Source: an uncultured virus (IMG/VR IMGVR_UViG_3300027759_000081) (lineage: Duplodnaviria > Heunggongvirae > Uroviricota > Caudoviricetes). From it: DNA of 64,000 bases. Shown piece after piece: positions 28,384-64,000 of the stretch. The notes under the pieces were generated by a model that saw only the letters and a program-made list of their open reading frames with translations, was not told the DNA's origin and did not search any database. Position numbers and translations under genes: made by a program. Location of the stretch: IMG/VR virus record IMGVR_UViG_3300027759_000081; one strand, given 5' to 3'. Position 1 is the first letter of the stretch. Each line of letters starts with the position of its first letter.

Positions 28384-28403
28384 TAACTCCAAGACCCTGA
28401 CAA

Positions 28404-28838
28404 ATGAAACCAAGACCTAATGAATCGTTTACCTCATGGTTTGACCGTCAGGGTTTTAAGCATTTTAAATCAGATGAGTTAACCTGGTATTTTAGCAAGG
28501 TCAGAAACGGAGTTAAGAACTCTACTCCACCTCGCGAATTGTGGATTAACATCGTTCCTACTATTAAGATACTTGATGATCTTCGAGAACATTTTGGTAA
28601 GAGCCTAGAAATATCCTCTACTTACCGGGCTCTACCGTATAACAGAGCAATTGGTTCGCCAGATGGATCTATGCATGTTAAGTTTAAAGCAGTAGACTTT
28701 ATAGTATCAGGTATAAGTCCTGCGACTGTATCAGCTGTGTTACGTAAATGGAGGAACGAAGGTAAGTTTGTCGGTGGCATCGGCAAGTATCCTACCTTCG
28801 TTCATCTTGACACACGCGACTATAACGCAACTTGGTAA
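28404..28838 (+). CDS. Endolysin, peptidase M15 family
   Basis: ISSTYR...YNRAIG....SMH.KFKAVD and FVHLDTR zinc-peptidase M15 motifs. Confidence 0.85.
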   Translation: MKPRPNESFTSWFDRQGFKHFKSDELTWYFSKVRNGVKNSTPPRELWINIVPTIKILDDLREHFGKSLEISSTYRALPYNRAIGSPDGSMHVKFKAVDFIVSGISPATVSAVLRKWRNEGKFVGGIGKYPTFVHLDTRDYNATW

Positions 28839-30283
28839 TCGAAGAACGCTTCGATCTTATCAAGCACCTGGCGTGAGACAACCTCCTTGGCCTTAAGTGC
28901 CTGAACCACCTTAACATCGGGTGAGTTCAGGCATATAAGGTCGTAATAGGTAACTTTATTACGCTGACCAATGCGGTGGTTGCGATCCTCTGATTGGAGT
29001 CTATGCTCAAGGTTAAAGCCGTTGGAATAGTAAATCGATACAGTAGCTTCGACAAGGGTCAGGGACTTGCCGGCTACACGTGGTGAAGCAAGGAACACAG
29101 ACGTCCCAGGTATTTCTCTAAACTTTTTAATGTTGCTCTCACGCTGTTCACCCTCTACACGACCAGATACCTCGTACACCGGGCAGATACCCTTAAGAGT
29201 TTCCTGGATGATCTGCATATCCTCTTGGAAGTAACCCCATACGATAGCCTTGGTACCAGCAGGAAGATCCTCGATGAGTTGCTTAAGGCGTTCTGGCTTG
29301 TTAGACTTTACACGTTGAACGTTACCCTCATCATCCTTGCAGTGGCCGCCAGCAATCTGGAGCGTTTTAGTCAGCACACTTAAAGCATTTTCTACAGTAA
29401 CAAGACCCTGTCCGATGTTTGTCATCATGGCTTTCTTAAGCAAGTTATTATGTAGGTCCTGCTCGTCTGTAGACTCTACGTAGATTGGAGCATAGACCTT
29501 GTCAGGCAAATCAAGACAGTCTGCTTTTAAGAGCCGTGAGGAGAATGGCTGAATGCGTTTGGCCAAATCATCAAGCTCACGATAACCTACTGTCTGCATG
29601 ATCTGTCGATTGTAACCGATCTGCATGGGTTGCATGATAGAGTAGTAAGCACGGAACGAAGTAAAGCTCTTGAATCCAGTAACACCCAGCTTTAGGAACT
29701 CACACTGAGCAAACAGGTCGATGGGCGACTGTGTGATTGGGGTACCAGTAAGGATACGGCGATACTGGCAACGCTTACCGATAGCAATACACTGCTTAGT
29801 GCGACCAGCAGTAGGACTCTTGATTGTAGTAGATTCGTCCACAACCATCATAGTAGAACTGTGAGCATCACGAAACTGTTCGGTATACTTACTGCCACCC
29901 ATGTTCTTACCTGACAGTGATTCGATATTAACGATAAGAATATCGAGTACACCGGGGACAGGGACTAGGCCATTAGCTAGTTCATCCTTTTTCGCCTTTG
30001 TAGTATACGAACTCCACACTGTTACGCGCACAGGTAGATGCTCAGGCCAGTGGGTTGGGAACTCGTTTAGAATCCAGTTAAGGTAGTAACCTTTCTCTGC
30101 GGTAATGATTATTGAATCGATCTTCTCATTGACGAATAGCCATTGTGCTGTATCGATAACAACCTTTGACTTGCCAGTGCCCATCTCCCAGAAGAGAGCA
30201 TAGTACTGGTAATCGCGAGTCTGTTCGAATATATTGCGTTGATGATTAAACGGTGTTGTCTTGTATTGGAATACGTGGTCCAT
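28820..30283 (-). CDS. SNF2-family helicase
   Basis: FWEMGTGKSK Walker A, VVDES, ILTGTP, QSEDRNHRIGQ motif VI. Confidence 0.9.
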   Translation of the reverse strand: MDHVFQYKTTPFNHQRNIFEQTRDYQYYALFWEMGTGKSKVVIDTAQWLFVNEKIDSIIITAEKGYYLNWILNEFPTHWPEHLPVRVTVWSSYTTKAKKDELANGLVPVPGVLDILIVNIESLSGKNMGGSKYTEQFRDAHSSTMMVVDESTTIKSPTAGRTKQCIAIGKRCQYRRILTGTPITQSPIDLFAQCEFLKLGVTGFKSFTSFRAYYSIMQPMQIGYNRQIMQTVGYRELDDLAKRIQPFSSRLLKADCLDLPDKVYAPIYVESTDEQDLHNNLLKKAMMTNIGQGLVTVENALSVLTKTLQIAGGHCKDDEGNVQRVKSNKPERLKQLIEDLPAGTKAIVWGYFQEDMQIIQETLKGICPVYEVSGRVEGEQRESNIKKFREIPGTSVFLASPRVAGKSLTLVEATVSIYYSNGFNLEHRLQSEDRNHRIGQRNKVTYYDLICLNSPDVKVVQALKAKEVVSRQVLDKIEAFFDYQVAL

Positions 30284-30374
30284 GGTATTTAACGGGGAAT
30301 TTAAGGGGTGTGTGATGTCATTGATATTATCCCTGGTGGTCTCTAGGATTACGATAGATAATTTATCGTGGACG

Positions 30375-31928
30375 CTAGTGTCCTCTTATGATGGTGTCTA
30401 GGGGATAGTGATTAGGCGTAGAAGGATGTATAACGTAGAGAGCATTGATGGCGCGGGTAAGTGCTACATACCAGACACGTGCTTCGTCTTCTGGATTATT
30501 CTTGTACTCACGATAGGTGCGCTGTGCCATGTCCATGAACACAACCACATTTTCTGCCTGGCCGCCTTTAACTCCATGGATAGTGTTAATGCGTATGCGC
30601 GCCTCGCCAGTTAGCTTCTCACCACGCTTGAGAGCGGTAAGTAGATACTCGCGTTGGTAAGAGTCAATGCGGTCAAATGCCTCGTGCCATATTGCTGTAG
30701 TAATTAAACCGAAATCACGTTCAAGATCGAGGATGTTAATGGTACGCTCTGGATCTGCTTCTTTAAGTCTGGACTTCTTGCCATACTGCACGCCAACTCG
30801 TGATGTCATCCACTCATAAACAGATAAGACTTGAGAGACAGTAGCTATACCGCCGTTGCGTAAGCGTTCCCATACACGGATGTCAGCAAGGAGTTGAGGG
30901 TCGATTGGATTCTCGACAGAAGATTCGAACACATAACCTTTGCGCATACAAAGCTCTTGATAGGTTTTTAGCAAGTAAGAGTTACGTGCCAGTAATAGCC
31001 AAGACCCTGTACTTAAATCCAGTTGGTCGATGTCTGATATAAACTTAGCGACGCCTAGTTCTAATCTTGGCTTCCACACTTTAGACAAGCGGTTAGATAC
31101 CTGGCTAATGACTGCATTCGCACATGTTGCTATCTTAGAAGGAACACGATAGCTTTGATCAAGAACTACAGTCTTACCTACTGGCAGATTGATGAACTGG
31201 TTTACATCTGCACCAGCCCATTTAAAGATTGCTTGGTCATCGTCACCAGCAACGTATACTTCGCCAGTGTGCTCTGCTAATTTAGCAACCATGCTCCACT
31301 GGATAGGCGACAAGTCCTGTGCTTCGTCTACAAATAGAACGTCAAATGGTGGTACGTTACCGTGTTTAATAAACTGCTCGATGATGTCAGTAAAGTCCTG
31401 CTTGCCTGTCTCTAGTTTGTAGGCGTTAATAGTTTCCTGCATTTGCTGGATCTCGTACACACTTAGGTTTTCGTCAACCCAGTCAGCATGTACCTGCTGG
31501 ATAGTCTTTTCCTGGATGCGTGCAAGGTTAGCAAGGAATAACAAGCGATCGCCTTTCGTCTGTCCGTGGAAAGATCCATCGTCTTTGAGACCGCGATAGG
31601 AGATATGTAAGTTTAGAGAACGTGCAATGTTAATGTAGTCGCCTACACTCATGACCATCTTGGTAGAGTAACCGAGCTGGCGGAATGCAAAGCTATGTAG
31701 AGTTCTGAAGTAAGTAAGATCCTCGGAACTAAGACCGAACTTTTCAGCAGCACGTGTGACTGCTTCAGTAGCTGCACGCTTTGTGAAGGCGACAAAACAG
31801 ATTCTGTTAGGAGGATAATAGATCAAGCAGTCCGATAACTGCTGCATCAGGGTGGTGGTCTTACCTGTTCCAGGTGGACCGAGAAATAGCTTTACTTTGC
31901 TAGGGTTCCAATTAGATAATTGACTCAT
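30375..31928 (-). CDS. UvrD/Rep-like SF1 helicase
   Basis: GPPGTGKTT, VDEAQD, AGDDDQAI, QSYR, TIHGVKGGQAENV, YVALTRA. Start chosen at MSQLS (the track gives 31976). Confidence 0.9.
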   Translation of the reverse strand: MSQLSNWNPSKVKLFLGPPGTGKTTTLMQQLSDCLIYYPPNRICFVAFTKRAATEAVTRAAEKFGLSSEDLTYFRTLHSFAFRQLGYSTKMVMSVGDYINIARSLNLHISYRGLKDDGSFHGQTKGDRLLFLANLARIQEKTIQQVHADWVDENLSVYEIQQMQETINAYKLETGKQDFTDIIEQFIKHGNVPPFDVLFVDEAQDLSPIQWSMVAKLAEHTGEVYVAGDDDQAIFKWAGADVNQFINLPVGKTVVLDQSYRVPSKIATCANAVISQVSNRLSKVWKPRLELGVAKFISDIDQLDLSTGSWLLLARNSYLLKTYQELCMRKGYVFESSVENPIDPQLLADIRVWERLRNGGIATVSQVLSVYEWMTSRVGVQYGKKSRLKEADPERTINILDLERDFGLITTAIWHEAFDRIDSYQREYLLTALKRGEKLTGEARIRINTIHGVKGGQAENVVVFMDMAQRTYREYKNNPEDEARVWYVALTRAINALYVIHPSTPNHYPLDTIIRGH

Positions 31929-33438
31929 TCTGTTTTGGTATTTCGAAAGGAGATTTTTGAATCCATTTTTTAGCATGGATCTTATAGCAGTTAATGCCCT
32001 TGCCTTTGATATTAAAGAACACGTGTTCTGCTTTCATATCTTTTAGGATGACAGCGATCTTAGAAGACTTGAACTCGTTAAAGCGTCTTACAGTCAGGTA
32101 ATCTACGAAGTCACGTAGTCTAAAGTGGGCAAAGTCTTGGTTAATCCAGACGTTACCAGCAACAAGAATATCTTTATCACGCTCGCCGTGGCCAGATGAT
32201 TTTACATTAATGAAGTCTTCGAGGTAAGATCTAAGCATACCAGCAGGTGTGGACTCATGAGGTATGTGCACGATGTTTACTGTCTCAAGTAGTGAACCTA
32301 CAATCTCAGACCAGTTCTCACGCTTTAGTACTGGCGGCATGATATTCATTTGATCCATGCAAGCCTTTTGAAAGCGCACTGGATTCTGAAGATCATCTGT
32401 GGTTAGTTCGATACGGCCGCCGCCTTCGATGTCGATAAACCACACTGGTGGAGAGGACTCGTACTTGGTAAGTGTGCCCATAGCCGGCATACCTGTTGAA
32501 GGTCCAATGCCATACTTAACTGTGCGACACTTGTTGCGGTTACAGTATGAAGCCATGGGTTGCGATGAGCACATGTATCTGTACTCTTTCTTCTTAAGCG
32601 ACTTGATAACACCCTGCACTTCGGTAGAAGGCAAAGGTGGATCCATGAATTTATTATTAAGCTCATCTAAATCGAGTGCCCACTTATCAGGGTTTTTCAT
32701 GATGGCATAAACACCTAATTGCATCAACCCGTTATTCCTAGTACCTTCAGGAAATCCTTGATGGCATAAACAGTTTAAGCATGGAGGAGCGTCTTTACCA
32801 AGTGGATCTTTAGGTGCTGATTCATAGGCACTTAGGGTCTCAGAGTCGACCATCTTGTGCTGCACAAGTTTAAGGAACTCGCCAATGTCTTTGACAGGCG
32901 CACCTTCTTTAATTGCATAACGATCAGTGTTTGATCCACCAAAGTATGGCATGTTGATCCATGAACCGGCATCACCACGGTCTACTAATAGTTCGGATTG
33001 TTTTGGGAAAATCTCGGATCCGCCCACACCGAGTATGGAAGCGAATTCTCCGAGCCTCAGCTTCATCATAGTAGCTGGGATATAATCAGTCGTAAAACAG
33101 TACAGGTGTACACCACCTGATTTGGTTCTGCACGCTACAAGAGGTAGGCCGTGCTTGCGTACTCGAGCTTCTATAGTCTCGGGTGTTACAGCGTAGTCGT
33201 CAACATCAATGGCGCCGAACCTACACTTATTATTGGAGTTGATCGGGATTATCCCAAGACCCTGTTCTCCGTCAAGGTGTTTGCTCCATAATTCTGTAGT
33301 GGGTTCTCCTACTAATGAAGCAGCCTTGCCCTTAACTTTACCTGATTCGTCATATGAGGATTTCTTTATCATGTAAACGCCATAGGCATTTTCAAATCCT
33401 TCGAATATAGTAGCAAACTGGCTAGCGTAAGGGTGCAT
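31912..33438 (-). CDS. Archaeo-eukaryotic primase (AEP) family protein with PriCT-like domain
   Basis: GAIDVD, RTKSGGVHLY, and PPCL....GFPEGTRNNGL followed by a Cys cluster (C..QPM..YC...KC). Confidence 0.8.
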   Translation of the reverse strand: MHPYASQFATIFEGFENAYGVYMIKKSSYDESGKVKGKAASLVGEPTTELWSKHLDGEQGLGIIPINSNNKCRFGAIDVDDYAVTPETIEARVRKHGLPLVACRTKSGGVHLYCFTTDYIPATMMKLRLGEFASILGVGGSEIFPKQSELLVDRGDAGSWINMPYFGGSNTDRYAIKEGAPVKDIGEFLKLVQHKMVDSETLSAYESAPKDPLGKDAPPCLNCLCHQGFPEGTRNNGLMQLGVYAIMKNPDKWALDLDELNNKFMDPPLPSTEVQGVIKSLKKKEYRYMCSSQPMASYCNRNKCRTVKYGIGPSTGMPAMGTLTKYESSPPVWFIDIEGGGRIELTTDDLQNPVRFQKACMDQMNIMPPVLKRENWSEIVGSLLETVNIVHIPHESTPAGMLRSYLEDFINVKSSGHGERDKDILVAGNVWINQDFAHFRLRDFVDYLTVRRFNEFKSSKIAVILKDMKAEHVFFNIKGKGINCYKIHAKKWIQKSPFEIPKQNESII

Positions 33439-33481
33439 ATTACAATAAACAATAATCGGTAATAATATAGAGTGCTAATAA

Positions 33482-33510
33482 CCGGCACTGGCGAATTACA
33501 CCAGTGCCGG
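33482..33510 (-). terminator. Hairpin, probable intrinsic terminator
   Basis: Perfect 10-bp stem CCGGCACTGG / CCAGTGCCGG, downstream of the minus-strand gene ending at 33530; the U-tract is weak. Confidence 0.55.
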
Positions 33511-33529
33511 CTGCATAGCAAGGGTTTAG

Positions 33530-34312
33530 TTAGAGAATGTCTTCTTCGATATGATTGGACTGGTTACCAATCAGAAGGTTAGAGTTCTCATTGGTCTCGC
33601 GAACCGCATTAACGAGACTTGTAATAAGACTCGCTTCAGTATGAGGTTGTGGAGCAGCCTCAATCTTCCAACCACGCCACGTTCCTTTAGAGTTAGACTC
33701 CGGAATAGTGGACAGGTAATAAGCGCGTGAGTACATGGGAAGCGTATTGCCGTTAGGACCAGTGAACGTCTTCATCATGTTAAGCCACACACGAGACTTC
33801 TTAAGCTGAGTGCTAGTAAGAGTCATGAGTGCATCGCCAATCGATTCTGCACCTTGCAGAAGACGAACAAAGAAGTAAGCAGTAGTAACAATGTTATTGC
33901 CATTAGGCAGTACATCTTTACCTGTCTTCTCATCGCGCTTAGCACTGTTAAGAATGTTTGGATTGATATGGGTAGCGACGATGCCACCACCCGCGGATTT
34001 TGGACGCCATTCGAGATACACCAACTTATAGAAGTAAGGTGTCACGCGTACAGGGTCCTTGCCTTCGCTATGTAGGATCTCACGGGTTACAGTGTTGATG
34101 ATGTCACCAACCTTAACTCCAGGGATTGCCTTACTTGCGTGGTCTACGTGATCTGCATCATATTCAGCAGATCCCTTTTGTACGATTGTAAGAATTGGAA
34201 TGCCCAGATCTTGTTGACCAAGATTCTCCAGTCCGCTAGGACCTTCGTGGGATTCCCAATTATATGCTGCTACACCCTCTTGAGGGTCCGATTGTTTTGC
34301 TTGTTTTGCCAT
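33530..34312 (-). CDS. Putative single-stranded DNA-binding / replication accessory protein
   Basis: 260 aa in the replication cluster; GLENL...DL.IP.L.IVQ, STQLKKSR.W, N.KG.W.GW.I, and an acidic C-terminus (EEDIL). Confidence 0.55.
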   Translation of the reverse strand: MAKQAKQSDPQEGVAAYNWESHEGPSGLENLGQQDLGIPILTIVQKGSAEYDADHVDHASKAIPGVKVGDIINTVTREILHSEGKDPVRVTPYFYKLVYLEWRPKSAGGGIVATHINPNILNSAKRDEKTGKDVLPNGNNIVTTAYFFVRLLQGAESIGDALMTLTSTQLKKSRVWLNMMKTFTGPNGNTLPMYSRAYYLSTIPESNSKGTWRGWKIEAAPQPHTEASLITSLVNAVRETNENSNLLIGNQSNHIEEDIL

Positions 34313-34326
34313 TGTTTTGTTTTTAG

Positions 34327-34854
34327 TTAGGAGAGCTTTGTCCGGCTCCCCTGGTATACGGAGAATAATGCTTCTGGAAGTGTTTCACCCTTGCCATATA
34401 CTTCACGCACGAATGCGCCAAGCGTGGAGTGATGTACATTTTCAGATAATCTGAAACCTGGATTCTCTTGAATGAATTCAAGAGCTGAGTCACGCTCATC
34501 GCGTGTGAACTGGCGGATGGCTTCGGTCTTGATGATACCACCGTGACCGTTTTCATCTAGCCACGAGAATCCTCCGTCGAGGATTTTAGCGTAGTAGAAC
34601 GGTTTGATTTCTACCTTACGACCGTTAGTGAGTGTAAGTGATTTCATACCGAGTGCGTCCATCCTATCTGGAATAAGTTTAGTAGAGACTTGCTCTAGTT
34701 CTGCCTTGAGTTCCTTGAGTTGGTTCTCTTTTTCCTTGATGCTGTCTTCTAATTGAGATTGCCGAAGGCAAAGCTCAGTTAGTGAATTAAGTTCCTGGTC
34801 GTCTACAGGAAGGCCCGTGAGGGGATTTACGACGATGTCTAGTTGTTGCGACAT
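34327..34854 (-). CDS. Conserved phage replication-cluster hypothetical protein
   Basis: Coiled coil, IPDRMD.LGMKSLTL.NG, F.WL.ENGHGGIIK, VHHSTL.AFVRE. Confidence 0.65.
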   Translation of the reverse strand: MSQQLDIVVNPLTGLPVDDQELNSLTELCLRQSQLEDSIKEKENQLKELKAELEQVSTKLIPDRMDALGMKSLTLTNGRKVEIKPFYYAKILDGGFSWLDENGHGGIIKTEAIRQFTRDERDSALEFIQENPGFRLSENVHHSTLGAFVREVYGKGETLPEALFSVYQGSRTKLS

Positions 34855-34860
34855 AATAAT

Positions 34861-34889
34861 ACAATATACAATCGTGATAACAGAGTAAA
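34861..34889 (-). promoter_or_regulatory. Putative sigma70-type promoter
   Basis: Minus strand TTTACT-17 nt-TATTGT directly upstream of the ATG at 34854. Confidence 0.35.
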
Positions 34890-34891
34890 TA

Positions 34892-35296
34892 CTAAAGATT
34901 CATGTTAGTTAATATAGTCCAACATTCGCCTTTATAGAATTGTTTAATAGGCAAATCAAGTACCCGTAAGTAATCGCCTACAATCTCAATTTTTTCTACG
35001 GGGTTTCTGTAAATAGAACAGATCTGATTCTCTTCACAGAAGACTAACACCCAAGCTCGTCCATTTGCTCTGACATGTTTTAAACCCCACACCCTTTGCT
35101 CAGGTCTTAGCAATGGAAGTTCATCAACCTTTGTAGTAACCTTTAGTTCTAACCAGAAGCCTTGGCATCTGGGAATTTGGATATAAGTATCAGGGATTCC
35201 GTTTTTAGTAGAACTCTCAATGTTAGTTACATGAGCGCCTTTAACTGCTAAGTGGCTTTTAAGCCATGTTCTGAATTTAGTTTCTCTTACTTCCAT
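34892..35296 (-). CDS. VRR-NUC / PD-(D/E)xK nuclease (resolvase-like)
   Basis: E..F...., GIPD...FWLELK....LRPEQ..W. Confidence 0.75.
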   Translation of the reverse strand: MEVRETKFRTWLKSHLAVKGAHVTNIESSTKNGIPDTYIQIPRCQGFWLELKVTTKVDELPLLRPEQRVWGLKHVRANGRAWVLVFCEENQICSIYRNPVEKIEIVGDYLRVLDLPIKQFYKGECWTILTNMNL

Positions 35297-37197
35297 GATG
35301 TGCCGTAATCTAGATCTACTTTAATAGGAACAGATATGTCAACGCAGGTTTCCATACACCGTTTAATAGCTTGCGCTTCTTCCTCGCTTGATACAGGGTA
35401 GTTAAGCTCGTCATGAACTTGCATATAAGGTATATGCCCTAGTTCGTTAAACACTTTAAGCATGGCAAACTTAGTCATGTCTGCCGCAGATCCTTGGATC
35501 AGTGCGTTAAGTGCCTTGCGTGTATCAGCACGACGTATTGCTACGCCTTTCCACTTTTCTAGTGCTAACTCACGAGTATCTACTGGCCAGCAATCGTCAG
35601 CAACTTTACATGCAGCACCGAAGTTAGCGGGTTCCCACATGTTAAAGTGTCGACGACGACCAGACAGGGTCTTAATGAACCCACGATTTTGAGCGGCTTG
35701 CTCGCACTTTTCTCCTAGTTGTTTAACGAATGGAACGTGCAGGTCGAATTGATCAAGGATGGCACGAGCTTTGATATGGTCACAGCGGAGTTTGGCTGCA
35801 AGTTTGTCGATGCCCATACCATAGCATCTTCCGAGGTAAAGATCTTTTGCCTGAGGTCGTTCGACAGAGGCGAGTTGGACCATAAGATTGTAGAAGTCCT
35901 GGTCAGGATTATCTCGGTAGACTTGGGCTGCATCAGCCGCGCCGGGCAAGCCCATTCTCTCAGCAAAACCGATGAGAATTCTAGGCTCCTGCTGCGAGTA
36001 ATCGAGCTTGGCCCACGACGATCCACTAGGAGCACAGAATAATCCTCTAATACGTTTACCCGACTTAGATCTGGAAGGGACCTGTTGCGGATTTGGATTT
36101 GAAGCTGCCATACGCCCAGTCCTAGTTCCTCCATCATCAGAAGCCAGCTGCTTCCATTGTGGGTGAACCCATCCATTGATTTGATTTCCGACAATCCAAC
36201 CGTCAATGAATGTCGAAGCAAGTCGATTATACTCTCGAGCGTCCCGGACTTTCTTGAGGAACGGGAAGCTGCTTCCTTCAAGGAACTCTTTAGTAAATGA
36301 AGGATTGCCTTTTGGTGTGGTAGGATACTGCAATCCGTGGTGGTCGCAATAGATTTTAAGGGAGACTCCGCTCCAGATATCGAGGCGCGGGAGACCGGCG
36401 CCGTAATCCTCAGCAAGGTGTTCAGTGATAATATTTTCTTTAGCATAATACTCTTTTGATAATTGTCGCGCTGCTTCTACATCTACAGGGATGCCGCGCA
36501 GTCGCATTTCCCATAGTATTGGCTGAATTGCCAGTTCCAATTGAAGTACTTCATCAAGACCCTGTTCACGGATCTCTTTCATTTGGTGGTGCCAGATATG
36601 GACGGGTGCCCATGCATCCCATTCGGCGTATGCACCTACGTAGATAGGACTTAGCATCCACAATCCGCCTTTAGGATCTACACCGAAGTCTTTAGCTGCT
36701 TCATTAAGCTTTTCTTCGTCTTTAGTCTGGCCGAGTCGACGTCGTGCAATCTCTTCGAGTGACGCAGGTTTTTCTTCGTCAATGAGTGGCTCAGCAATCT
36801 GTATGTCGAAGATCTTTGCTTTGCAAGTAATACCGAGCGACCAGATAGCTTCACGCTCATACATCGTGTTGGCTCCTACAAGGGTCTTGGAGGTATCACC
36901 GACTATAGATTCTAAGAACTTGAGGCATGATTCGCGAGGCATTTGATGTTGCTTGCCATACTCATGGTCAAACGGGAAATACCAGCTGGCATCACCTGTT
37001 GACATGGAGAACCCGACCACCTTGGCATCACCTCGTATGAAGCCTGGACCCTTAGATTTAAGATGTGGATCCTTAGTCTCGACGTCAAAGCCGATTAGAT
37101 CTACGTTATTAATGTTAGGAAACTCTTTTGGACAACGCCATTCTGATGGTGGTTCCCATAAAGGCATTTGCCCTGGTATGTCTTTGTGTTTACGCAT
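35287..37197 (-). CDS. polA: Family A DNA polymerase with 3'-5' exonuclease domain
   Basis: Exo I FDVET, YAEWDA, TGRMAASNPNPQQVP, motif A DYSQQEPR, motif B RPQAKDLYLGRCYGMG, motif C QVHDEL. Confidence 0.93.
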   Translation of the reverse strand: MRKHKDIPGQMPLWEPPSEWRCPKEFPNINNVDLIGFDVETKDPHLKSKGPGFIRGDAKVVGFSMSTGDASWYFPFDHEYGKQHQMPRESCLKFLESIVGDTSKTLVGANTMYEREAIWSLGITCKAKIFDIQIAEPLIDEEKPASLEEIARRRLGQTKDEEKLNEAAKDFGVDPKGGLWMLSPIYVGAYAEWDAWAPVHIWHHQMKEIREQGLDEVLQLELAIQPILWEMRLRGIPVDVEAARQLSKEYYAKENIITEHLAEDYGAGLPRLDIWSGVSLKIYCDHHGLQYPTTPKGNPSFTKEFLEGSSFPFLKKVRDAREYNRLASTFIDGWIVGNQINGWVHPQWKQLASDDGGTRTGRMAASNPNPQQVPSRSKSGKRIRGLFCAPSGSSWAKLDYSQQEPRILIGFAERMGLPGAADAAQVYRDNPDQDFYNLMVQLASVERPQAKDLYLGRCYGMGIDKLAAKLRCDHIKARAILDQFDLHVPFVKQLGEKCEQAAQNRGFIKTLSGRRRHFNMWEPANFGAACKVADDCWPVDTRELALEKWKGVAIRRADTRKALNALIQGSAADMTKFAMLKVFNELGHIPYMQVHDELNYPVSSEEEAQAIKRCMETCVDISVPIKVDLDYGTSWK

Positions 37198-52399: not shown

Positions 52400-52429
52400 T
52401 CCCTGACATAACAGAAAGGAACTAATACT

Positions 52430-52921: not shown

Positions 52922-52942
52922 TCTCCTTAGTTGCGATAACCT

Positions 52943-52988
52943 GTAAGAGCTCGGCGGTTTAACTACCGTCGGGCTCTTACTTCTTCCT
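52943..52988 (+). terminator. Intrinsic terminator after the capsid genes
   Basis: 16-bp stem GTAAGAGCTCGGCGGT / ACCGTCGGGCTCTTAC (with G-U pairs), then TTCTTCCT. Confidence 0.7.
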
Positions 52989-52993
52989 TAATT

Positions 52994-53584: not shown

Positions 53585-53585
53585 T

Positions 53586-56087: not shown

Positions 56088-56517
56088 CCTTACGCTAGAA
56101 CGTTTAGACAAGGAAAATTTCCTAGAATTTATTTCTAGGCACTATTTTAGCGCAAAGATGGATAATCCAGAATTTTACCAGGGATATATCCATGATAGAT
56201 CAATGGGTTATATTGTCCTGGAGGATGGCCGATCGATTGGTGCATTCGGAATAAATATAGCCTACAACGGGGTTGGCGAATGTTGGTTGTTTAGCACAGA
56301 TAAACTTAATCGTTACCCTATCTGGATGGTCAAACAATTTAAAAACATTACTAACGAAGTTCTTAACCGTGGACTGCACCGCGTTCAAATGTTTGTAGAA
56401 AACACAAGGTTAGATTATCATCGCTTTGCACAGATTTTAGGATTTGAATTCGAAGGAGTTTTACGTAAACACTCAACAACTGCAATCGACCACGCGGTCT
56501 ACTCTAAAATAAAATGA
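56080..56517 (+). CDS. GNAT-fold protein (T7 gp13-like position)
   Basis: G.GECW, RVQ..V.......RFA..LGF..EG.LRK; follows tail tubular B. Confidence 0.65.
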   Translation: MSNLTLERLDKENFLEFISRHYFSAKMDNPEFYQGYIHDRSMGYIVLEDGRSIGAFGINIAYNGVGECWLFSTDKLNRYPIWMVKQFKNITNEVLNRGLHRVQMFVENTRLDYHRFAQILGFEFEGVLRKHSTTAIDHAVYSKIK

Positions 56518-56981
56518 CAGGTATCGAATGGGTTTTCTTAGCTTCAGCTATTGCTAGTGCTGGTGTTGGAGCATACAGCTCTTATCAGCAAGGTAAAGCT
56601 GCTGACGAACAAGCAAAGTATCAATCTCAAACCGCCCTACTCAATGCGAAAGCTATGGGTGAGGAGTCTGATTACGAGGCTACTCGTATCCGCGAAAAAT
56701 ATCGCAGACTTCGTGGGTCACAGATTGCTTCTGCTACTAAGGCGGGTATATCAATTGACGGATCTACTGGCGATCTTATGGCAGAAACAAATGTTCAAGA
56801 AGATCTTGACGTTATGTCTGTTCTCTACAAAGGGAAGCAAGCTATACTTGGTGAGAAATTTAAATCTGATCTGTTTATTAGTCAAGGTAAGAATGCCCGT
56901 AAAGAAGGCAAGATCGGTGTAGCTTCATCACTCATTGGTGGTGTTTCTGATGTAACTGCTAACTGGCCAACTATTCAATAA
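56514..56981 (+). CDS. Internal virion (ejection) protein, small (T7 gp14-like)
   Basis: Hydrophobic Ala/Gly N-terminus, then Q/A-rich helix and G.Q.A...AG....GS motif. Confidence 0.7.
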   Translation: MTGIEWVFLASAIASAGVGAYSSYQQGKAADEQAKYQSQTALLNAKAMGEESDYEATRIREKYRRLRGSQIASATKAGISIDGSTGDLMAETNVQEDLDVMSVLYKGKQAILGEKFKSDLFISQGKNARKEGKIGVASSLIGGVSDVTANWPTIQ

Positions 56982-56982
56982 T

Positions 56983-59487
56983 ATGCCCGACATTCCTAGA
57001 ACATTTTCAAACGCAAGCATCCTTGGAGGAACTAACTTTTCTACTCAAGCACCGCAAGGAGCTTTTGGTGCAGACATGTCCTCCCTTGGTGCGGCTATTA
57101 GCGGACTTGGTCGTTCTATTGTAATCAATAAAAAGACACGTGATAAGATCGAAGAAGAAGATCGTAAAAAAGAAGAAGCACAGTGGCTTAACAGATCTCT
57201 TTCTGAGTATCAGAGAAAGATTACTGATTTTGAAACCAACCCTGAAAACAGAAGTCGTGTCGACTATCTTCCCTCATTCCTGGCTAACGCAGATAACACC
57301 GCTTCTGGCTACATGGAAGGAGCACCATCTGCCGAATCTTACGATGCATTCCAAGAAAAAGCTCGAGAGATAGTAGATCAGCGTTATGGACGTTCTGCTG
57401 CTCTTGGTGCCAACAATGAGATGCAAGCCGACATAATCGCTATTGATCAGTCCTGGGGATTGACGATGCAATCTTACCAATCATTTGCACCCATAGACCC
57501 TGACAGTGCGGCCAACGATCTTTTCACCGGACTTCAGACTGCTACAGACCATGTTCTTGAATTATATGGAGAAATTGCTCCTAATGAAGCAAAAGCAATG
57601 GTTACCCGTAGAATAGTAGATACTACTCTTGCTCTTATAGAAAAATCTCCAGATAAGGCAAAATGGCTTATTGATAACAACGGTGTCTACATTGATCAGC
57701 AAACGCGCCAGACGTTGCTAAATAAAATAGAAACTAAGAAAGCAACAGGTTCACTACTTCTTAAAGAAGACTTTAACACTGTTCGTGAAAAATCACTGAT
57801 TGCTGCAGAACGAACCGGGAACTACAAATCGCTACCTATCGAGGATTATCAAATGATTTATCCTGGTGAGGAAGCACAACTAATGAAACAGCGTGATGAC
57901 CAGACTGCGCAGGCTTCTTTAGATTCTCACGGGTTTATTGCTGAAACAAAAAGCATGATCCCTGCTGAAAAGTTAAGGCTTGCTAAAGAGTTTGAGGATA
58001 CCCGTAAAACTGAAAAAGAACTTCGGGCTTTTGCCTCTATTGTTTCGCCAGCTTTAATTGAAGATTCTCGCTTGTATAATGAAGATCCAGTAGCTTGGCA
58101 AATAGAAAATAATCCAACTGTTCAGACCATCGGGACTGATATGGAGACTTTACAGTTTAATGAAACTGACGAGGGTCAACCGGGTATACTTCCTATGCCT
58201 GGTACTGAAAGAGGAACAGGTGTTGGTGAAGCCCCTATTTCTCTAGACGGTTCGGTCAAAACAGATGTTGCTGGCATAAAGCAAGTTCCAACTATGGATC
58301 AAGCTGTTGCTTCTAGAGAGCAGTATTATCGCGCTATTCTTAGATCCCAGGGTGCTGCTGGTGAAGGTGAGGATCCTACACGTTACATGAACCGCCCACG
58401 CAGTGAGTGGCGTATCATGACTAAAAACGAGGCTGACAATGCATCTGCCCAGATTAACGGTGCCGATATTGACAATGTCATTCAGGTGGTAGATTCTATT
58501 CTGTCCAAGTATCCTTCAGATGATTTAAGAGCTCAAGCAATATCTGATCTGATGACAATACCTCAGAACAAGATTAAAGCTGAGTATGCTATTGTGTTTC
58601 AGAATCGTGATCAACCATGGCTTCCAGAGTTTATTGGTAACCTTCGCTCACTTGATTCATTAACTGAGATGAATAAAGTAGATGCTTCTAAAGTAAAAAC
58701 TTCGATCTCTTCTAATGGTTTATGGAACTCCTTTAAAAATACTATTATCGGACCACAGGACCAACGTGCTGACGAAGTTAAAGGATACTTTAACGCCATT
58801 GAAACTGACGTAAAAGTAATGGTAGCTAAAGGTAAGAAGATTGAAGACGCCGTAGATATTTCCATTAACCGTATCCTTGCCTCAACGATGAAACCTACAA
58901 AATTGGCTCTTCCAGGTATGAATGACGGTCCCCCTGGTCAAATCAATTGGGATATGTGGGGCAATAAAAAACCACAGATTTGGATTCCAGTACAACCAGA
59001 AGGATTTTCTAGAAAACTTAACCAAACAGAGATTGATAATTACGGACAACGTATGGGTGTCGCTCTTGCCAATATCCACCCCGATGATATTGATGTTTCC
59101 CAGTTCCCTAACTTTGAACAAACTGAAGACAAAACAAAGCAACAGGAACTTATTTACAACAAGATTGTAAAAACCGGATCTTACTACCCAGAACCCGGAG
59201 GAGCCTATTGGCGTGTCACTGTTGAAAGTGATTCCGGTCAACGTGTGGATTTACGAGATAAAGAAGGCAGGTTCTTTCGACTTCCTCTTAAAAACGTTCC
59301 TGCATATAAAAGAAAAGGTTTATTTATGGAAGGTCTGGAAATGAAAGGATTTACTCCAGATACCTGGTCTTGGAAAGAAACCGAGACCTTTGTAGACTAT
59401 CCTGAAGGAGGTGAACAACCTACACCCATAAATAATTGGAAAAAAACTTACCCTAAAACCGGAGCCTTCTGGCAATTTACACGATGA
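56983..59487 (+). CDS. Internal virion (ejection) protein, medium
   Basis: 834-aa mostly helical ORF starting MP.IP; position between the gp14-like gene and larger ejection proteins. Confidence 0.6.
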   Translation: MPDIPRTFSNASILGGTNFSTQAPQGAFGADMSSLGAAISGLGRSIVINKKTRDKIEEEDRKKEEAQWLNRSLSEYQRKITDFETNPENRSRVDYLPSFLANADNTASGYMEGAPSAESYDAFQEKAREIVDQRYGRSAALGANNEMQADIIAIDQSWGLTMQSYQSFAPIDPDSAANDLFTGLQTATDHVLELYGEIAPNEAKAMVTRRIVDTTLALIEKSPDKAKWLIDNNGVYIDQQTRQTLLNKIETKKATGSLLLKEDFNTVREKSLIAAERTGNYKSLPIEDYQMIYPGEEAQLMKQRDDQTAQASLDSHGFIAETKSMIPAEKLRLAKEFEDTRKTEKELRAFASIVSPALIEDSRLYNEDPVAWQIENNPTVQTIGTDMETLQFNETDEGQPGILPMPGTERGTGVGEAPISLDGSVKTDVAGIKQVPTMDQAVASREQYYRAILRSQGAAGEGEDPTRYMNRPRSEWRIMTKNEADNASAQINGADIDNVIQVVDSILSKYPSDDLRAQAISDLMTIPQNKIKAEYAIVFQNRDQPWLPEFIGNLRSLDSLTEMNKVDASKVKTSISSNGLWNSFKNTIIGPQDQRADEVKGYFNAIETDVKVMVAKGKKIEDAVDISINRILASTMKPTKLALPGMNDGPPGQINWDMWGNKKPQIWIPVQPEGFSRKLNQTEIDNYGQRMGVALANIHPDDIDVSQFPNFEQTEDKTKQQELIYNKIVKTGSYYPEPGGAYWRVTVESDSGQRVDLRDKEGRFFRLPLKNVPAYKRKGLFMEGLEMKGFTPDTWSWKETETFVDYPEGGEQPTPINNWKKTYPKTGAFWQFTR

Positions 59488-62400
59488 GCATGCTTTTTTC
59501 TACAGTAAACGGATCGGCTTTGCCTAGCGCAAAGTCAGACATTCCATCAAGCACTTTCTATTCTACTGCATTCGAGCAGGGTATGAAAGAGTCAATGCTA
59601 ACTTCTCTGTATCGCATGTCAGAGTACAGTCTAGCAAAAGAATACGATCCAGAACTTAACCCATATATTCCTCGTAAAGAAGCTATTGACTGGGCAAAAA
59701 ATGAAGGAGTTAACATAAATTTCGATTACGATCCTACTAGCGATGAAATGAGTCTGCTTGTTGAAAGAAAGAGAGAAGAGAATGATCGTCAGGCTATTCT
59801 TGCAGCTGGTACAACTGGTGGCGGTCGTATTGCTGGTAGTATGGGAGTTCAGTTTCTTGGATCGATTTTAAACCCAGTCGATCTTCCACTTATGTTTTTA
59901 CCCATTGTGGGGTCTGGGGCCAAAGCTGCTCAAGCAACAAGTGCAGTTTCACGAATCGTTGCTCGTGGACTAGTTACAGAGGAAGTTCTTGCCGCTCGTG
60001 GATTAGCCATGAAAGGCTATACAGCTGCTATTATTGAAGGAACAGTTGGTCAAGCAATCACTGAAATTCCGCTAATGATTTCAAATCAGCAAAGCAAGAT
60101 TGACTACACAGGAAGTGACTTTGTTACTAACATCGCTCTTGCTGGTGTCTTTGGTGCAGGCATAAACACACTTCGACTTGGCGTTAACGGGATACTTAAT
60201 ATGCAACGACGTCTTACACCTGAGACCCAAGAGAACATGATGGCTGGTGCACAGGATGACTTTTTGCGTGGACGAGATATTGATCCAGGTAGGTATGTTG
60301 ACTTAGATGATGAGGTAGGTATGAACAAGACCCTGACCAACACAGTCAGAGATTATGATGCCGCTGATGCCAAATTTAAGGAAAACTACGCTACTCTTTC
60401 ACCAAAGCAAAAAGATCTGTACGAGTTTAATAAAGGCAACAAGCTTGTTGATGGTAATGGTTTACCGGTAATTGTATACCATGGCCGTACTTGGCAGGGC
60501 GATCAATTCGATCCTACAACTCTTGGTAAAAACACGGGCGCTAGCAGTGCAAAAGAAGGATTTTTCTTTGCTGGTAGTCCGAAAACTTCTCAGTACTATA
60601 TTCTTAAATCGGAATTTCAGAATGATCCACGTGTCTCTGACATTATGGATAAAATGGATGCGATACAAAAAGAACTTAGAGAGAATCCAAATGAAGCAAA
60701 TGAAATTCTTAAGTCTGAGATCAAAGCACTTGGTAATGAAGCTGCTGACCGCCTAGGTGTGGACTCTGTTTTCCGTGAAGGTGGCAATGTAAGTGCGTTT
60801 ATGGTGTCAATGAAGAATCCAAAAATCGTTGACTTTAATGGTGAGTTTCATCGTCCACAAACTTACAAGCAAGTTATTGCTGAAGCAAAGGCTGCTGGTC
60901 ACGACGGTGTAGTTATTAGGAACACTTTTGACGGTGGACCACTTGACGATATTTATGTTGCATTCGATCAAAATAGTATTAAGTCTGCTTACGAATATCG
61001 TATTGTTAGAGAGGCTAATAATAAAGTAGCCAGCAATCAGCAAGCGATTGCTGACTATAAAGCACGTGAAGAAAAGAAAGCTCAGGCCCGAGCACAGATA
61101 CTTCAGAAAGAAATCGATGACGGAAAGATGGTTCCACAAGAACAAATTAAACCGCATCGTGATCAACCTGACGAAGCAGAGTTTGCTGCTATGGATGAAG
61201 AACTAGACTTCCTCCGCGGACTAGATCTTGAAGAAGAAGACTGGAATAAGATGACTGGTCGGATGGCTGATACAGGTTCTAAACCACCTACTAAAAGTGA
61301 ATTTACTGATGAGTTAATGCCAGATAGCAAAGTTAGAGATAACTCCGGTAACCTTATAAAACTATATCATGGTGGGGAAAAAGGAATTACATCGTTTGAT
61401 CAATTAAAGAGACCTGGTTCTGCATACAAGCAAAATTCTCTTCATTCAGAAGGGATATGGTTTACCCCAAATAAAGGCGAAAAAGGTGTGCAGGAAGATG
61501 AGTTCATGTCTAGTTATGCCTCAACCTATGCGTTAAATTATCCTGAAGGAGAAATTTATGAGGTATATGTAAACATAACTAACCCTAAAAAAATAGGCCA
61601 AGAAGAAGCTAACTATCTTACTCTTGATGAATTGGTTGCTCAAGGTTATGATGGGGCCTATACTATTGACACGGGTTTCTGGATTGCTACTGATCCAAAA
61701 CAAATTCAGTTTGTTCCGAAAGACACCTTCCCCTCTAAACAACCTACTAAAAGTGAGTGGGACTCACGAGCAGAAAAACTTAGAATGTTTACTAACGATC
61801 TTACTTTCGACCAGTGGCATAAACTTACTAACACACCACTTTTTGGTGGAAAATATGAAACTAGTACTGACTTACTTGTTGAGGGTTTTCGGTTGTACAT
61901 GCCGGATATTGCAAAAGCGTTTGATACACTTCTTGAAATTGACCCGACTCTTAACGAAATTCCTGTACGGTTTAACAAAGATCTTATGACAAATGAGAAC
62001 GCTTGGGGTTTGTACGATGCCTCAATTGATACTATAACCCTGAACGGATCTTCTTCCCCAAAAACATTTTTGCATGAATTAGTTCATGGTTCAGCGGTTC
62101 GCCGTTTCCGTAAAGATCTTTCCTCTACAATGGGATCTGTTAGGACCACGGTTCTAAAAGGAGATAACTACCTAAAGTCGCTGATTGATTACAGCAAGAA
62201 AACCAAGAATAAACCTATGGCAAAACTTGTACAAGCCTATGAGTTAGCGGTTAAAAAGTTTGAAACTGATTATGATGGTAATCTTCGAAAATATCTTAAC
62301 GGTAATGACGAAGTTTTCTTTAACGAACTTGAAGTACCTTTTTACGGACTACTTAACTTTGACGAATTTATTGCAGAAGGATTAACAAATCGAACATTCC

Positions 62401-62678
62401 AACTTTTCTTACAATCAATTCCTGCAGTTAAGGGTTCTCCTAAAACCTTACTTGAATCCTTTGTCGATACTTTCAGAGAGTTCTTTTTTATGAAAACAAC
62501 CTGGGAAGGTCAAAAAGGAACGACTACTCTTTTAGACGAAGTCCTTCAAGATTATTCTGAAATGGTTAAACAAGGTATCCGCAAACCTACTGACTATCTT
62601 AAATCTGTTCAGAAAATGTCTTCTGCTGATGTAAACGCACCGCTCCTTCAAAAAGTCTCTAACTGCTTACTACTATAA
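59484..62678 (+). CDS. Internal virion / polyvalent protein with two ADP-ribosyltransferase-like domains and a zincin-like HExxH domain
   Basis: LVDGNGLPVIVYHG...GFFFA...GHDGVVI and VRDNSGNLIKLYHGG...GIWFT...GYDG; later FLHELVH...DEFIAE. Confidence 0.7.
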   Translation: MSMLFSTVNGSALPSAKSDIPSSTFYSTAFEQGMKESMLTSLYRMSEYSLAKEYDPELNPYIPRKEAIDWAKNEGVNINFDYDPTSDEMSLLVERKREENDRQAILAAGTTGGGRIAGSMGVQFLGSILNPVDLPLMFLPIVGSGAKAAQATSAVSRIVARGLVTEEVLAARGLAMKGYTAAIIEGTVGQAITEIPLMISNQQSKIDYTGSDFVTNIALAGVFGAGINTLRLGVNGILNMQRRLTPETQENMMAGAQDDFLRGRDIDPGRYVDLDDEVGMNKTLTNTVRDYDAADAKFKENYATLSPKQKDLYEFNKGNKLVDGNGLPVIVYHGRTWQGDQFDPTTLGKNTGASSAKEGFFFAGSPKTSQYYILKSEFQNDPRVSDIMDKMDAIQKELRENPNEANEILKSEIKALGNEAADRLGVDSVFREGGNVSAFMVSMKNPKIVDFNGEFHRPQTYKQVIAEAKAAGHDGVVIRNTFDGGPLDDIYVAFDQNSIKSAYEYRIVREANNKVASNQQAIADYKAREEKKAQARAQILQKEIDDGKMVPQEQIKPHRDQPDEAEFAAMDEELDFLRGLDLEEEDWNKMTGRMADTGSKPPTKSEFTDELMPDSKVRDNSGNLIKLYHGGEKGITSFDQLKRPGSAYKQNSLHSEGIWFTPNKGEKGVQEDEFMSSYASTYALNYPEGEIYEVYVNITNPKKIGQEEANYLTLDELVAQGYDGAYTIDTGFWIATDPKQIQFVPKDTFPSKQPTKSEWDSRAEKLRMFTNDLTFDQWHKLTNTPLFGGKYETSTDLLVEGFRLYMPDIAKAFDTLLEIDPTLNEIPVRFNKDLMTNENAWGLYDASIDTITLNGSSSPKTFLHELVHGSAVRRFRKDLSSTMGSVRTTVLKGDNYLKSLIDYSKKTKNKPMAKLVQAYELAVKKFETDYDGNLRKYLNGNDEVFFNELEVPFYGLLNFDEFIAEGLTNRTFQLFLQSIPAVKGSPKTLLESFVDTFREFFFMKTTWEGQKGTTTLLDEVLQDYSEMVKQGIRKPTDYLKSVQKMSSADVNAPLLQKVSNCLLL

Positions 62679-64000
62679 TGGCCCGTAAATCCGTATCTGA
62701 TTGTACCAAAGGGATCAAGTCCCTTGTCCGTGATAAGAAAATGACCGACGTCCAAGCCGACGAGCTTGTAGTACGCATCAATAATCTTGCCAATAATCGC
62801 GTGGTTAAAACCAAAATGAAACTTGAAGACGCCCTTAAGGAAATTGAAGGCGAAATCATAAATTCAGTAAAGTTTGAAGCCAAGGTTAATGAGCGTAATC
62901 GGTTGTTGACTATTAACGCAAAACGTGAGGTAAAAGAAGCAGTTAAGAAATTTGATACGTGGGGCGAGGGACTTCAGTCTCTTCTTGAAGGGGGAAACTT
63001 ATCTAAGCCAGGTGCACGACTCAGCGTAGACTACAAAGCGCGTGCGATGTACAATCAGTATTTCGGATCGTTTATTGCAGAGATTGAACAGCTTGGAATA
63101 ATGAGAGAGTTCAGATCAGGTAAACTTGATCGTGAGATTTATCAGGAAATTTCAGAGCTTAATAAGAAAGGTGGAACACCAGGCATATCTAAAAATGATT
63201 CTGCTCTTAAGATTGCTAGTTCATACAATCGTGTCCGCAAAGAAATGGTGTCACGTCAGAACAGAGCTGGTGCATACATTCGTGATCTTGACGGTTATAT
63301 CATGCGTCAGAGTCATGACACTGGAGAAATTCAGAAATTAGGTAGAGATGCCAATGGCAAGTTAAGCAAAGCTGAATCCTTTAAAAAGTGGTATCAAGTT
63401 GTGCTTCCGCTACTTGACCATCAAGCAACCTTCAGAGGACTTCCACCTAAAGACTTCATGGAAAAAGTTCACGAAAGTCTTTACACTGGAGTTCATGGAG
63501 CCCCATCTGGTGAAGCCGAGATTGCTGAGTTCTTTGCTCATGGATCTATGGCCCGTTCAGCTTCCGCAAGCAGGGTCTTACACTTTAAAGATGCCAATGC
63601 TTCGTTTGAGTACAATCAGATGTTTGGTTCTAAAAACTTCTCTGATGGTCTTCTAAACGATATGCTGTTCCGTTCACGTAACATCACGATGATGGAAACG
63701 TTTGGACCGAACCCTAAGCAAACATATCAAGAGATTGTTAACGATCTTCGCAAGGAGGCGCGCACTCGTGAGGACGCCGCTGAGCAAGTTAAGCGCATAG
63801 ACGACTGGCGTGTTAAAGCAGCATGGTCTGAAGTATCTGGTGAGAATGAATATCCTGCCAACATTACGCTAGATAAAATTTCTAGTAGTATAAGGATTGT
63901 AACTCAACTATCTAAAATGGGTGGAGTCGTTCTTAGCTCTATGGGCGATAAAGCATTCTTACAATCTGAGATGTCATTCCAAGGACTTTCTCAAATGGAA
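62678..64000 (+). CDS. Large internal virion (ejection) protein; 3' end truncated by the window
   Basis: TAATG-coupled start at 62678; hand translation MARKSVSDCTKGIK...NRAGAYIRDLDGYIMRQSHD...SRVLHFKDA...FGPNP resembles podovirus ejection proteins. Absent from the track because it has no stop in the window. Confidence 0.7.
   Translation, partial: MARKSVSDCTKGIKSLVRDKKMTDVQADELVVRINNLANNRVVKTKMKLEDALKEIEGEIINSVKFEAKVNERNRLLTINAKREVKEAVKKFDTWGEGLQSLLEGGNLSKPGARLSVDYKARAMYNQYFGSFIAEIEQLGIMREFRSGKLDREIYQEISELNKKGGTPGISKNDSALKIASSYNRVRKEMVSRQNRAGAYIRDLDGYIMRQSHDTGEIQKLGRDANGKLSKAESFKKWYQVVLPLLDHQATFRGLPPKDFMEKVHESLYTGVHGAPSGEAEIAEFFAHGSMARSASASRVLHFKDANASFEYNQMFGSKNFSDGLLNDMLFRSRNITMMETFGPNPKQTYQEIVNDLRKEARTREDAAEQVKRIDDWRVKAAWSEVSGENEYPANITLDKISSSIRIVTQLSKMGGVVLSSMGDKAFLQSEMSFQGLSQME

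Follow-up and report, generated by a model that had tools for sequence, protein, structure and literature searches.

Why does the octamer AGACCCTG recur 21 times, on both strands and mostly inside genes, in one part of a 64,000-nucleotide stretch of DNA from an uncultured tailed virus (IMG/VR record IMGVR_UViG_3300027759_000081; hereafter the window)? The window is made of two phages joined, a myovirus part (1 to ~26,800) and a podovirus part (26814-64000). An earlier note on this DNA, made from the sequence alone, had claimed that the octamer acts as a signal in the DNA itself, is maintained by selection and occurs only in the podovirus part. In this freshwater podovirus of 39 kb, we find that AGACCCTG is a DNA-level word held by selection, and we weigh here what might read it.

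All 21 exact copies lie within 28392-63578, 14 on the + strand and 7 on the - strand, at the places and on the strands given in the earlier note (Table 1). Its rough expectation of about one copy was also borne out: 100 dinucleotide-preserving shuffles averaged 0.94 copies and never exceeded 5, and order-2/3 Markov models predicted 0.8-1.2 copies for 28001-64000. In 1-28000 there were 0 copies against 0.2 expected, and the one variant noted there by eye is a copy of TGACCCTG at 265, in the myovirus part. AGACCCTG is the commonest 8-mer of the podovirus part, at a density of ~1 copy per 1.8 kb (both strands), and the commonest 7-mer is GACCCTG (27 copies). Window positions 27129-64000 are 99.995% identical (blastn) to G001, a complete IMG/VR record of 39,443 bp that has 22 copies of AGACCCTG and 0 of the reversed word used as a control. 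The flanks of these 22 sites agree with the longer consensus put forward earlier, C-A-AGACCCTG-(A/T)-C, with C in 16/22, A in 15/22, A or T in 19/22 (never G) and C in 14/22. Five near-matches that had been pointed out are all real: AGACCCTT at 36880 (-), CGACCCTG at 38761 (+), and TGACCCTG at 45166 (-), 49744 (+) and 51189 (+). The sites are mostly genic, in differing frames and both orientations, as described before: three are intergenic and the other 18 fall within 16 genes, with five frame/orientation classes represented (K/Q-T-L, 7; x-D-P-x, 5; Q-G-L, 4; T-G-S, 1; S-R-V-L, 1).

The excess persists when the encoded proteins and their codons are held constant. Synonymous codons were permuted within each of 36 open reading frames (ORFs) 500 times, with intergenic DNA unchanged; the shuffles contained 5.35 copies on average (sd 1.4, max 10), against the 21 observed. 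Synonymous opportunity, defined as every place in 37 ORFs where the encoded peptide permits AGACCCTG, gave a similar picture. The word was realised at 18 of 62 peptide-compatible places, where codon usage predicted 2.0, including 4/5 places for Q-G-L and 7/19 for K/Q/E-T-L. Five control octamers were realised only 0-4 times out of 20-55 places.

Comparison with two relatives bears on the same point. G002 matches the window at 95.7% identity across 29,216 aligned bases, and 16/16 aligned sites are intact there, some with altered flanks; the chance of no change over 128 positions at that identity is 0.957^128, or ~0.004. G002 also bears three further AGACCCTG sites where the window has near-variants. 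The more distant G003 (59.6% nucleotide identity over aligned codons) keeps 3 of the 12 fully aligned window sites in place (a further 2 are partly aligned and 7 unaligned). Its total is nevertheless 18 copies (1.0 expected), 11 of which align to window sequence that is not the word. Since few positions are shared but the copies are still numerous in G003, selection acts on how many sites there are and not on where each one lies. Fragments resembling G003 are 99% identical to it and hence uninformative on decay. The earlier claim thus withstood the tests proposed along with it, namely codon-preserving shuffles, the use of synonymous sites, absence from the myovirus part, lack of decay in a close relative and an undiminished count in a distant one.

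We next asked how far the word extends. The comparison covered 38 whole sequence records, 51 of 80 primase-centred loci (those of at least 12 kb) and 45 of 73 capsid-centred loci (at least 10 kb). The clade was taken as the genomes that share the window's structural genes, which form 25 rows in a capsid tree; G001 and G002 were counted as the window's lineage, and records lacking a capsid homolog were left out. An excess of a k-mer can by itself be a codon effect, as three low-G+C genomes of 31-59 kb warn (G014, G015 and G019; loci L097-L104). Their five-fold excess of GACCCTG (8, 15 and 10 copies) was rejected as a coding effect: GAC-CCT-G (Asp-Pro) in one sense frame makes up 24/25 copies in G015 and G019 together and 6/8 in G014. 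Therefore only words present across at least three frame/orientation classes were scored. Also rejected were GCTGCAGC (G011) and GCAGCAGC (G003 and G038), which are frame-bound codon repeats, and AAAGGAGA words, which are ribosome-binding sites. Other top words include the palindromes TCTCGAGA (G007) and CTCATGAG (G027), and in G027 a longer element that includes CTCCGTGCCGAAGGC (GC hairpin, GAAG loop) is present six times.

An exact CCCTG core is found in the word of 13 of the 25 clade genomes, the general form in the related phages being A-A-N-N-CCCTG. The word is AGACCCTG in the window and G003; AGTCCCTG in MW202510 (12 vs 0.52 expected), G030 (17) and G041 (7 vs 0.53); AAACCCTG in G018 and G029; AACCCCTG in G012 (10 vs 0.66); TCCCTGTTC in G008; AAGCCCTGG in G023; GACCCTGG in G028 (17 vs 2.6); and CCCCTGG(A), CCCCTGGA, in G039 (15 vs 1.6). 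G031 belongs to the AGTCCCTG group, with GTCCCTGT at 15 vs 0.64, and carries both AGTCCCTGT (8) and AGACCCTGT (5). These variants differ by one or two bases, and their carriers range from 42 to 54% G+C and come from different samples. Three more clade genomes have related pyrimidine-rich words: CCCTTGTA in G033 (loci L265-L267; 9 vs 0.93), CCTTTGGA in G032 (L270-L272; 17 vs 1.8) and CCTCTTGGA in G037 (L282-L284; 9 vs 0.42). The words of this sister group are richer in T, so departures from the CCCTG core evidently can occur. The remaining nine genomes (G007, G010, G011, G013, G027, G034, G035, G036 and G038) have no such word; seven of them form one clade on the capsid tree, where G007 and G027 stand apart as isolated losses. 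The word is private to this phage clade and drifts in sequence within it.

The arrangement of the sites gives a mixed picture. The word is about twice as common on the strand that carries the structural genes in sense (14:7 in the window, 15:7 in G001, 11:7 in G003 and 9:3 in MW202510). Sites in G001 are more evenly spaced than random (coefficient of variation, CV, 0.58; P 0.004-0.005), and so are its 15 majority-strand sites (CV 0.50, P 0.004), whose largest gap is 5.1 kb on a 39.3-kb circle. On the linear map of G001, taking its ends as real, 8/10 left-arm sites face one way and the four nearest the right end face the same way. The window's largest gap, 4.7 kb, covers the portal-to-capsid block (48549-52399), which has no site, and the corresponding structural core of G003 lies in a 9.3-kb word-free gap (27329-36631). 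In the most conserved genes, it seems, the word is either avoided or difficult to accommodate.

What, then, reads the word? A protein encoded by the phage, with a specificity that drifts between lineages, is the probable answer; we favour it over a host signal because the word is selected, clade-private and drifting. Among phage-encoded candidates we tentatively put first the phage's own archaeo-eukaryotic primase (AEP), with the words as primer start sites. It ranks ahead because of the both-strand, kilobase-scale and partly even spacing, the enzyme's DNA-reading domains and a precedent for 8-nucleotide words. It is followed in our ranking by nick sites, a duplex-binding protein, a host signal and, last, base modification or biased repair.

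The primase, a protein also on record from a 66,440-bp contig, has a Prim-Pol domain (residues 1-207), a helical Cys-rich middle (~219-305) and a winged helix (392-502); the model of the protein has a pLDDT of 83. Its Prim-Pol domain superimposes on the CAPP Prim-Pol 7nqf_B with Z 19.8 and a root-mean-square deviation (rmsd) of 3.1 over 189 aligned residues (VIA). The model has helices at 219-304; RepB' (3h20) aligns to residues 1-287 of the whole protein with Z 7.4 but an rmsd of 15.5, and PriCT_1 (PF08708) is listed for some primase homologs only. Residues 397-498 match TcpK of pCW3, an oriT-binding winged-helix protein (Z 8.5), and the winged helix also resembles those of Cch, SaPI Rep and ORC (Z 6-8.5). 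Judging from the model, this winged helix could bind duplex DNA. The precedent is the AEP primase-polymerase of phage NrS-1, which reads the 8-nucleotide template word 5'-TTTGGTTA-3' plus GTG through a helix-bundle domain; its authors suggest that the 8-mer serves in the choice of start site (PMC8718748).

Under the priming reading, the words would be the sites at which the primase prefers to begin the primers of discontinuous DNA synthesis. A match to eight bases would arise by chance about once per genome, and further copies would therefore have to be introduced, for the most part by the choice among synonymous codons. Words so written would be frequent enough for each template strand to be primed every few kilobases. 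A primase this specific would prime phage DNA and not host DNA, and lineages without the word would have a primase of relaxed specificity.

Several observations weigh against this reading. Known replicative primases use 3-4-nucleotide sites, and a requirement for eight would be unusual. Even spacing is absent in G003, MW202510, G012 and G008, and a two-arc (replication-fork) strand model, tried and rejected, gave no improvement over shuffled labels (P 0.44 for G001). The nine clade genomes without a CCCTG-type word that were named above still encode a primase with a similar degree of likeness to that of the window (39-48%). Most of the 51 further primase-bearing loci (at least 12 kb) also lack a CCCTG-type word, so the expectation that every phage with an orthologous primase carries a word does not hold. 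G027 (loci L250-L252) has 2 copies of GTCCCTG against 20 in G031, though their capsids are 81% identical; every conserved G031 gene has a homolog in G027, none being uniquely missing. No gene was found whose presence tracks the word, and neither the VRR-NUC-like gene nor the methyltransferase does so.

The case of G027, in which the word is gone though all conserved genes found are still there, is what a host switch would permit, and the patchy distribution of the word in the clade likewise suits a signal dictated by the host. Such a signal might be Chi-like (for RecBCD or AddAB), of the uptake type, or a word spared by host defence. Chi sequences are typically asymmetric and 5-8 nucleotides long, which also counts in favour. 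We nevertheless consider a host signal unlikely. A single core unites the variants in phages that come from different samples and span 42-54% G+C, and one drifting reader fits this better than many hosts. If the ends of G001 are real, the last four sites before its right end have the orientation opposite to the one that the polarity of Chi requires. The closest opposed pair of AGACCCTG sites in the window is 164 nucleotides apart, unlike the terminator pairs of uptake sequences (USS/DUS). A survey of 185,579 species genomes for host candidates gave no close relative of the capsid or primase: the capsid had none, and the primase profile found 26 loci in metagenome-assembled genomes of many phyla, all at no more than 52% identity.

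Next in rank after priming comes a nickase of the phage's own, acting on replicating or mature DNA in the manner of T5, phiKMV-like and tf-like phages; here each word would be cut on the strand that bears it. Among the cases found, the sole enriched 8-9-mer within phage genes that has been shown experimentally is a nick motif, WACTRTGAC, which marks 13 nicks in phage Rembedalsseter (PMC11780129). In 61 related podoviruses this motif occurs 9.0 times against 0.7 by chance, within coding sequences, and is kept despite low nucleotide similarity (PMC11780129). Traits of that kind are seen here as well: the word is far above chance, dispersed, mostly genic, and kept in relatives with varying positions. 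The podovirus encodes a ligase and a small protein whose MW202510.1 homolog is annotated VRR-NUC. However, the nick motif is one-stranded in the accessible part of that source (PMC11780129), whereas the word here is two-stranded in each of the four genomes counted, and the sequences of AGACCCTG and WACTRTGAC are unalike. The word-free G027 and G013 have the VRR-NUC-like gene too, and Pfam gave no VRR-NUC match. Nicking is possible, and we hold it to be a less likely account than priming. Both might be aspects of a single process, if junctions between fragments were to stay unsealed where priming sites are fixed.

A reader of duplex DNA is a more doubtful proposal. The word would then be the binding site of a winged helix-turn-helix (wHTH) paralog, or of the winged helix of the primase, and would serve for marking, compacting or labelling the phage genome. 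The three wHTH paralogs mentioned in the earlier note are present (Table 1). They are early proteins that share a C-terminal, winged-helix-like block (..TKQ..RI..YYQ..L...G) and were paired by regular expression and MAFFT, not by BLASTP at E 0.01. The tail of paralog 1 is basic and contains a GRP motif; the best fold match of this paralog is a winged-helix domain, with a probability of 0.96 but an E of 0.22, which makes the assignment weak. Where the paralog-1 homolog carries the signature T[RK]QPxxR[IV], 14 of 15 genomes have an enriched word. Where the signature differs or no paralog-1 homolog was detected, 0 of 8 genomes have a strong word, with a weak TGACCCTG (10 vs 2.0) in G007; G012, which has a divergent signature and a word, falls outside both counts. 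Counted as independent contrasts on the capsid tree, however, this association has about two in its favour and two (G027 and G012) against it. Intergenic DNA is not enriched for the word (3/21 sites), and a palindrome in the control region, TAAGTCATTGACTTA, is a more obvious target for wHTH regulators.

That central, divergent control region (44349-46135) contains at least four copies, in both orientations, of the operator-like TAAGTCATTGACTTA, as well as AT-rich repeats. Between the two gene arms, at 45530-45675, lies a G+C-rich array of ~22-bp units (GCGCGTGCG...CGAGTTGAGGC) with AT-rich flanks, which in its sequence resembles origin iterons. The strand of the word switches (46054 - / 46346 +) ~0.4 kb from this array.

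The last account, that the word is a by-product of site-specific base modification or of repair biased towards a target, starts from a nucleotide-modification-like module at 38126-40973 (-). This comprises a thymidylate-synthase/pyrimidine-hydroxymethylase homolog, a small kinase, a MazG-like pyrophosphatase and a class I S-adenosylmethionine (SAM) methyltransferase. The MW202510.1 counterpart of the thymidylate-synthase homolog is annotated pyrimidine hydroxymethylase, and MW202510.1 also has a dCMP deaminase. The module suggests that the podovirus DNA holds a replaced or hypermodified pyrimidine. One MW202510 gene is moreover annotated as a G:T/U glycosylase. Mismatch correction towards the enzyme's target would enrich the word, an origin that has been proposed for HIP1 in cyanobacteria. 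HIP1 has been linked to methyltransferases (PMC4390886). Here, however, the 46 proteins scanned included no DNA methyltransferase family, only the class I SAM protein (Methyltransf_23), which belongs to a generic viral family; a PDB sequence search with this protein gave chance matches only. No glycosylase or Vsr-like gene was found among the window phage ORFs scanned. A 20-fold excess with 29% synonymous saturation also lies far above the Vsr effect in E. coli. We regard this account as very improbable, and the earlier suggestion of a modification target found no support.

Table 1. Word sites, candidate readers and other features of the podovirus part of the window.
Feature	Position	Strand	Remarks
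AGACCCTG site	28392..28399	+	intergenic, just 5' of endolysin ORF starting 28404; intact in G002
AGACCCTG site	29403..29410	+	SNF2-type helicase gene, antisense (Q-G-L); intact in G002, lost in G003
AGACCCTG site	31002..31009	+	UvrD-type helicase gene, antisense; intact in G002
AGACCCTG site	33257..33264	+	primase gene, antisense (Q-G-L); homologous place kept in G003
AGACCCTG site	35665..35672	-	DNA polymerase A gene, sense (K-T-L); homologous place kept in G003
AGACCCTG site	36557..36564	+	DNA polymerase A gene, antisense
AGACCCTG site	39165..39172	-	kinase-like gene, sense (Q-D-P-D); homologous place kept in G003
AGACCCTG site	40603..40610	+	class I methyltransferase-domain gene, antisense
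AGACCCTG site	40767..40774	-	class I methyltransferase-domain gene, sense; one mismatch in G003
AGACCCTG site	42488..42495	-	wHTH paralog 2 gene, sense; intact in G002
AGACCCTG site	42989..42996	-	ORF 42735-43130, sense; overlaps TGACCCTG near-copy at 42983
AGACCCTG site	44618..44625	+	central non-coding control region
AGACCCTG site	46054..46061	-	central control region
AGACCCTG site	46346..46353	+	ORF 46135-46662, sense (K-T-L)
AGACCCTG site	47217..47224	+	large terminase gene, sense
AGACCCTG site	48451..48458	+	ORF 48290-48547, sense
AGACCCTG site	53176..53183	+	tail tubular protein A gene, sense
AGACCCTG site	55774..55781	+	tail tubular B / nozzle gene, sense; one mismatch in G003
AGACCCTG site	57495..57502	+	ORF 56983-59487, sense; core intact in G002, flanks differ
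AGACCCTG site	60328..60335	+	ORF 59484-62678, sense
AGACCCTG site	63571..63578	-	virion structural gene 62678-64000+, antisense
AEP primase, 508 aa	31912..33438	-	candidate reader 1; PF22548, phrog_21866
VRR-NUC-like small protein	34892..35296	-	only nuclease candidate for a nickase; phrog_2165; depositor annotation of MW202510 homolog
wHTH paralog 1, 135 aa	41414..41821	-	candidate reader 2; Lys/Ala/Pro-rich tail with GRP (AT-hook-like) motif; model pLDDT 71
wHTH paralog 2, 243 aa	42119..42850	-	shared C-terminal block ..TKQ..RI..YY..
wHTH paralog 3, 141 aa	44948..45373	-	inside central control region
TAAGTCATTGACTTA copies	44452-44480, 44678-44706, 45848-45871, 45963-45991		
Podovirus genome extent	26814..64000		circularly permuted; ~2.2 kb more past window end; from blastn to G001 and G+C step

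The two parts of the window differ in content and composition. Positions 1-26813 hold a T4-like myovirus baseplate and tail-fibre module (a hub with tail lysozyme, wedge subunits and fibres). G+C is 0.35-0.40 from 1 to ~26,800 and steps from ~0.38 to ~0.45 at the start of the podovirus. Window positions 26814-27232 match G001 1-419 at 94.5% (blastn), a diverged duplicate of a podovirus segment that lies beyond the window end, and the ends of G001 carry a 104-bp repeat. From the near-perfect match to the complete G001 together with this junction copy, the podovirus is a complete, permuted genome to which a foreign fragment has been joined, most simply during assembly; the junction looks like a chimeric assembly artefact, not a natural hybrid. 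The + strand of the podovirus encodes T7-type portal, capsid, tail tubular proteins A and B and internal virion proteins; the - strand carries the replication and nucleotide-metabolism arm.

Parts of the sequence were found in 13 runs from 9 studies, labelled freshwater, estuary, sediment or plain metagenome; none of the runs had half of the sequence words sampled. A megablast of 22 kb against 50,697 phage records returned no near-identical phage, and the metagenome scan gave no new close relative beyond G001 and G002. The literature searched, which did not extend to supplementary files, contained no description of AGACCCTG or of the phenomenon, and a search for the octamer gave primer lists only.

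If a phage enzyme reads the word, replication or DNA processing in these phages would be sequence-addressed, and codon choice would be constrained genome-wide. The word would then offer a handle for separating phage lineages in metagenomes, and its readers a naturally diversified set of sequence-specific enzymes to study (AGA/AGT/AAA/AAC...CCCTG). A further and more speculative idea, which we think unlikely as it stands, is that the A-A-N-N-CCCTG words form a genome 'barcode', the primase or nickase of a phage acting only on DNA with the word of its own lineage. An enzyme limited in this way would tell phage DNA from host DNA and from co-infecting relatives. Were that true, one- or two-base switches of word and reader would split lineages, and the genes of an abundant clade of freshwater phages would carry a code for self-recognition. 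The clade also bears on the old question of what phage nick motifs are for, as it provides both-strand sites, natural switches of specificity and natural losses.

Four known systems can be set beside this one. Like Chi, the word is an asymmetric octamer that would act wherever it is placed, irrespective of genes. Chi differs in being set by a host enzyme and in being enriched and skewed in the host chromosome, whereas the word family here follows the phage clade. With the sites of T7 gp4 (5'-GTC-3' within GGGTC) and E. coli DnaG-type primases (CTG) there is a likeness of sequence: the complement CAGGGTCT contains GGGTC, and AGACCCTG ends in CTG. Both strands and a kilobase-scale spacing are further points in common. 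These enzymes nevertheless belong to another family, and no DnaG/TOPRIM primase was present among the ORFs scanned here; the AGTCCCTG variant lacks GTC, and sites of 3-5 nucleotides need no enrichment.

The nick motifs of tf and Rembedalsseter, T5 and phiKMV-like phages share more with the word. In both cases a short asymmetric word is 10-20-fold enriched and lies in genes, in a podovirus of ~40-45 kb with two transcription arms, and the motif is kept while its positions shift (PMC11780129). The nick motifs differ in being one-stranded and clustered towards one genome end, whereas the word here is spread over the whole genome at a strand ratio of ~2:1. The AEP primases for which words have been described, pRN1 ORF904 (GTG) and the NrS-1 enzyme, have in common with the podovirus primase an AEP Prim-Pol fold followed by a helical region, and the phage enzyme NrS-1 supplies the precedent for an 8-nucleotide word (PMC8718748). 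The accessible portion of that source does not report genome-wide enrichment of the NrS-1 8-mer (PMC8718748), in contrast to the word described here. The podovirus primase differs further in its architecture, adding a C-terminal winged helix.

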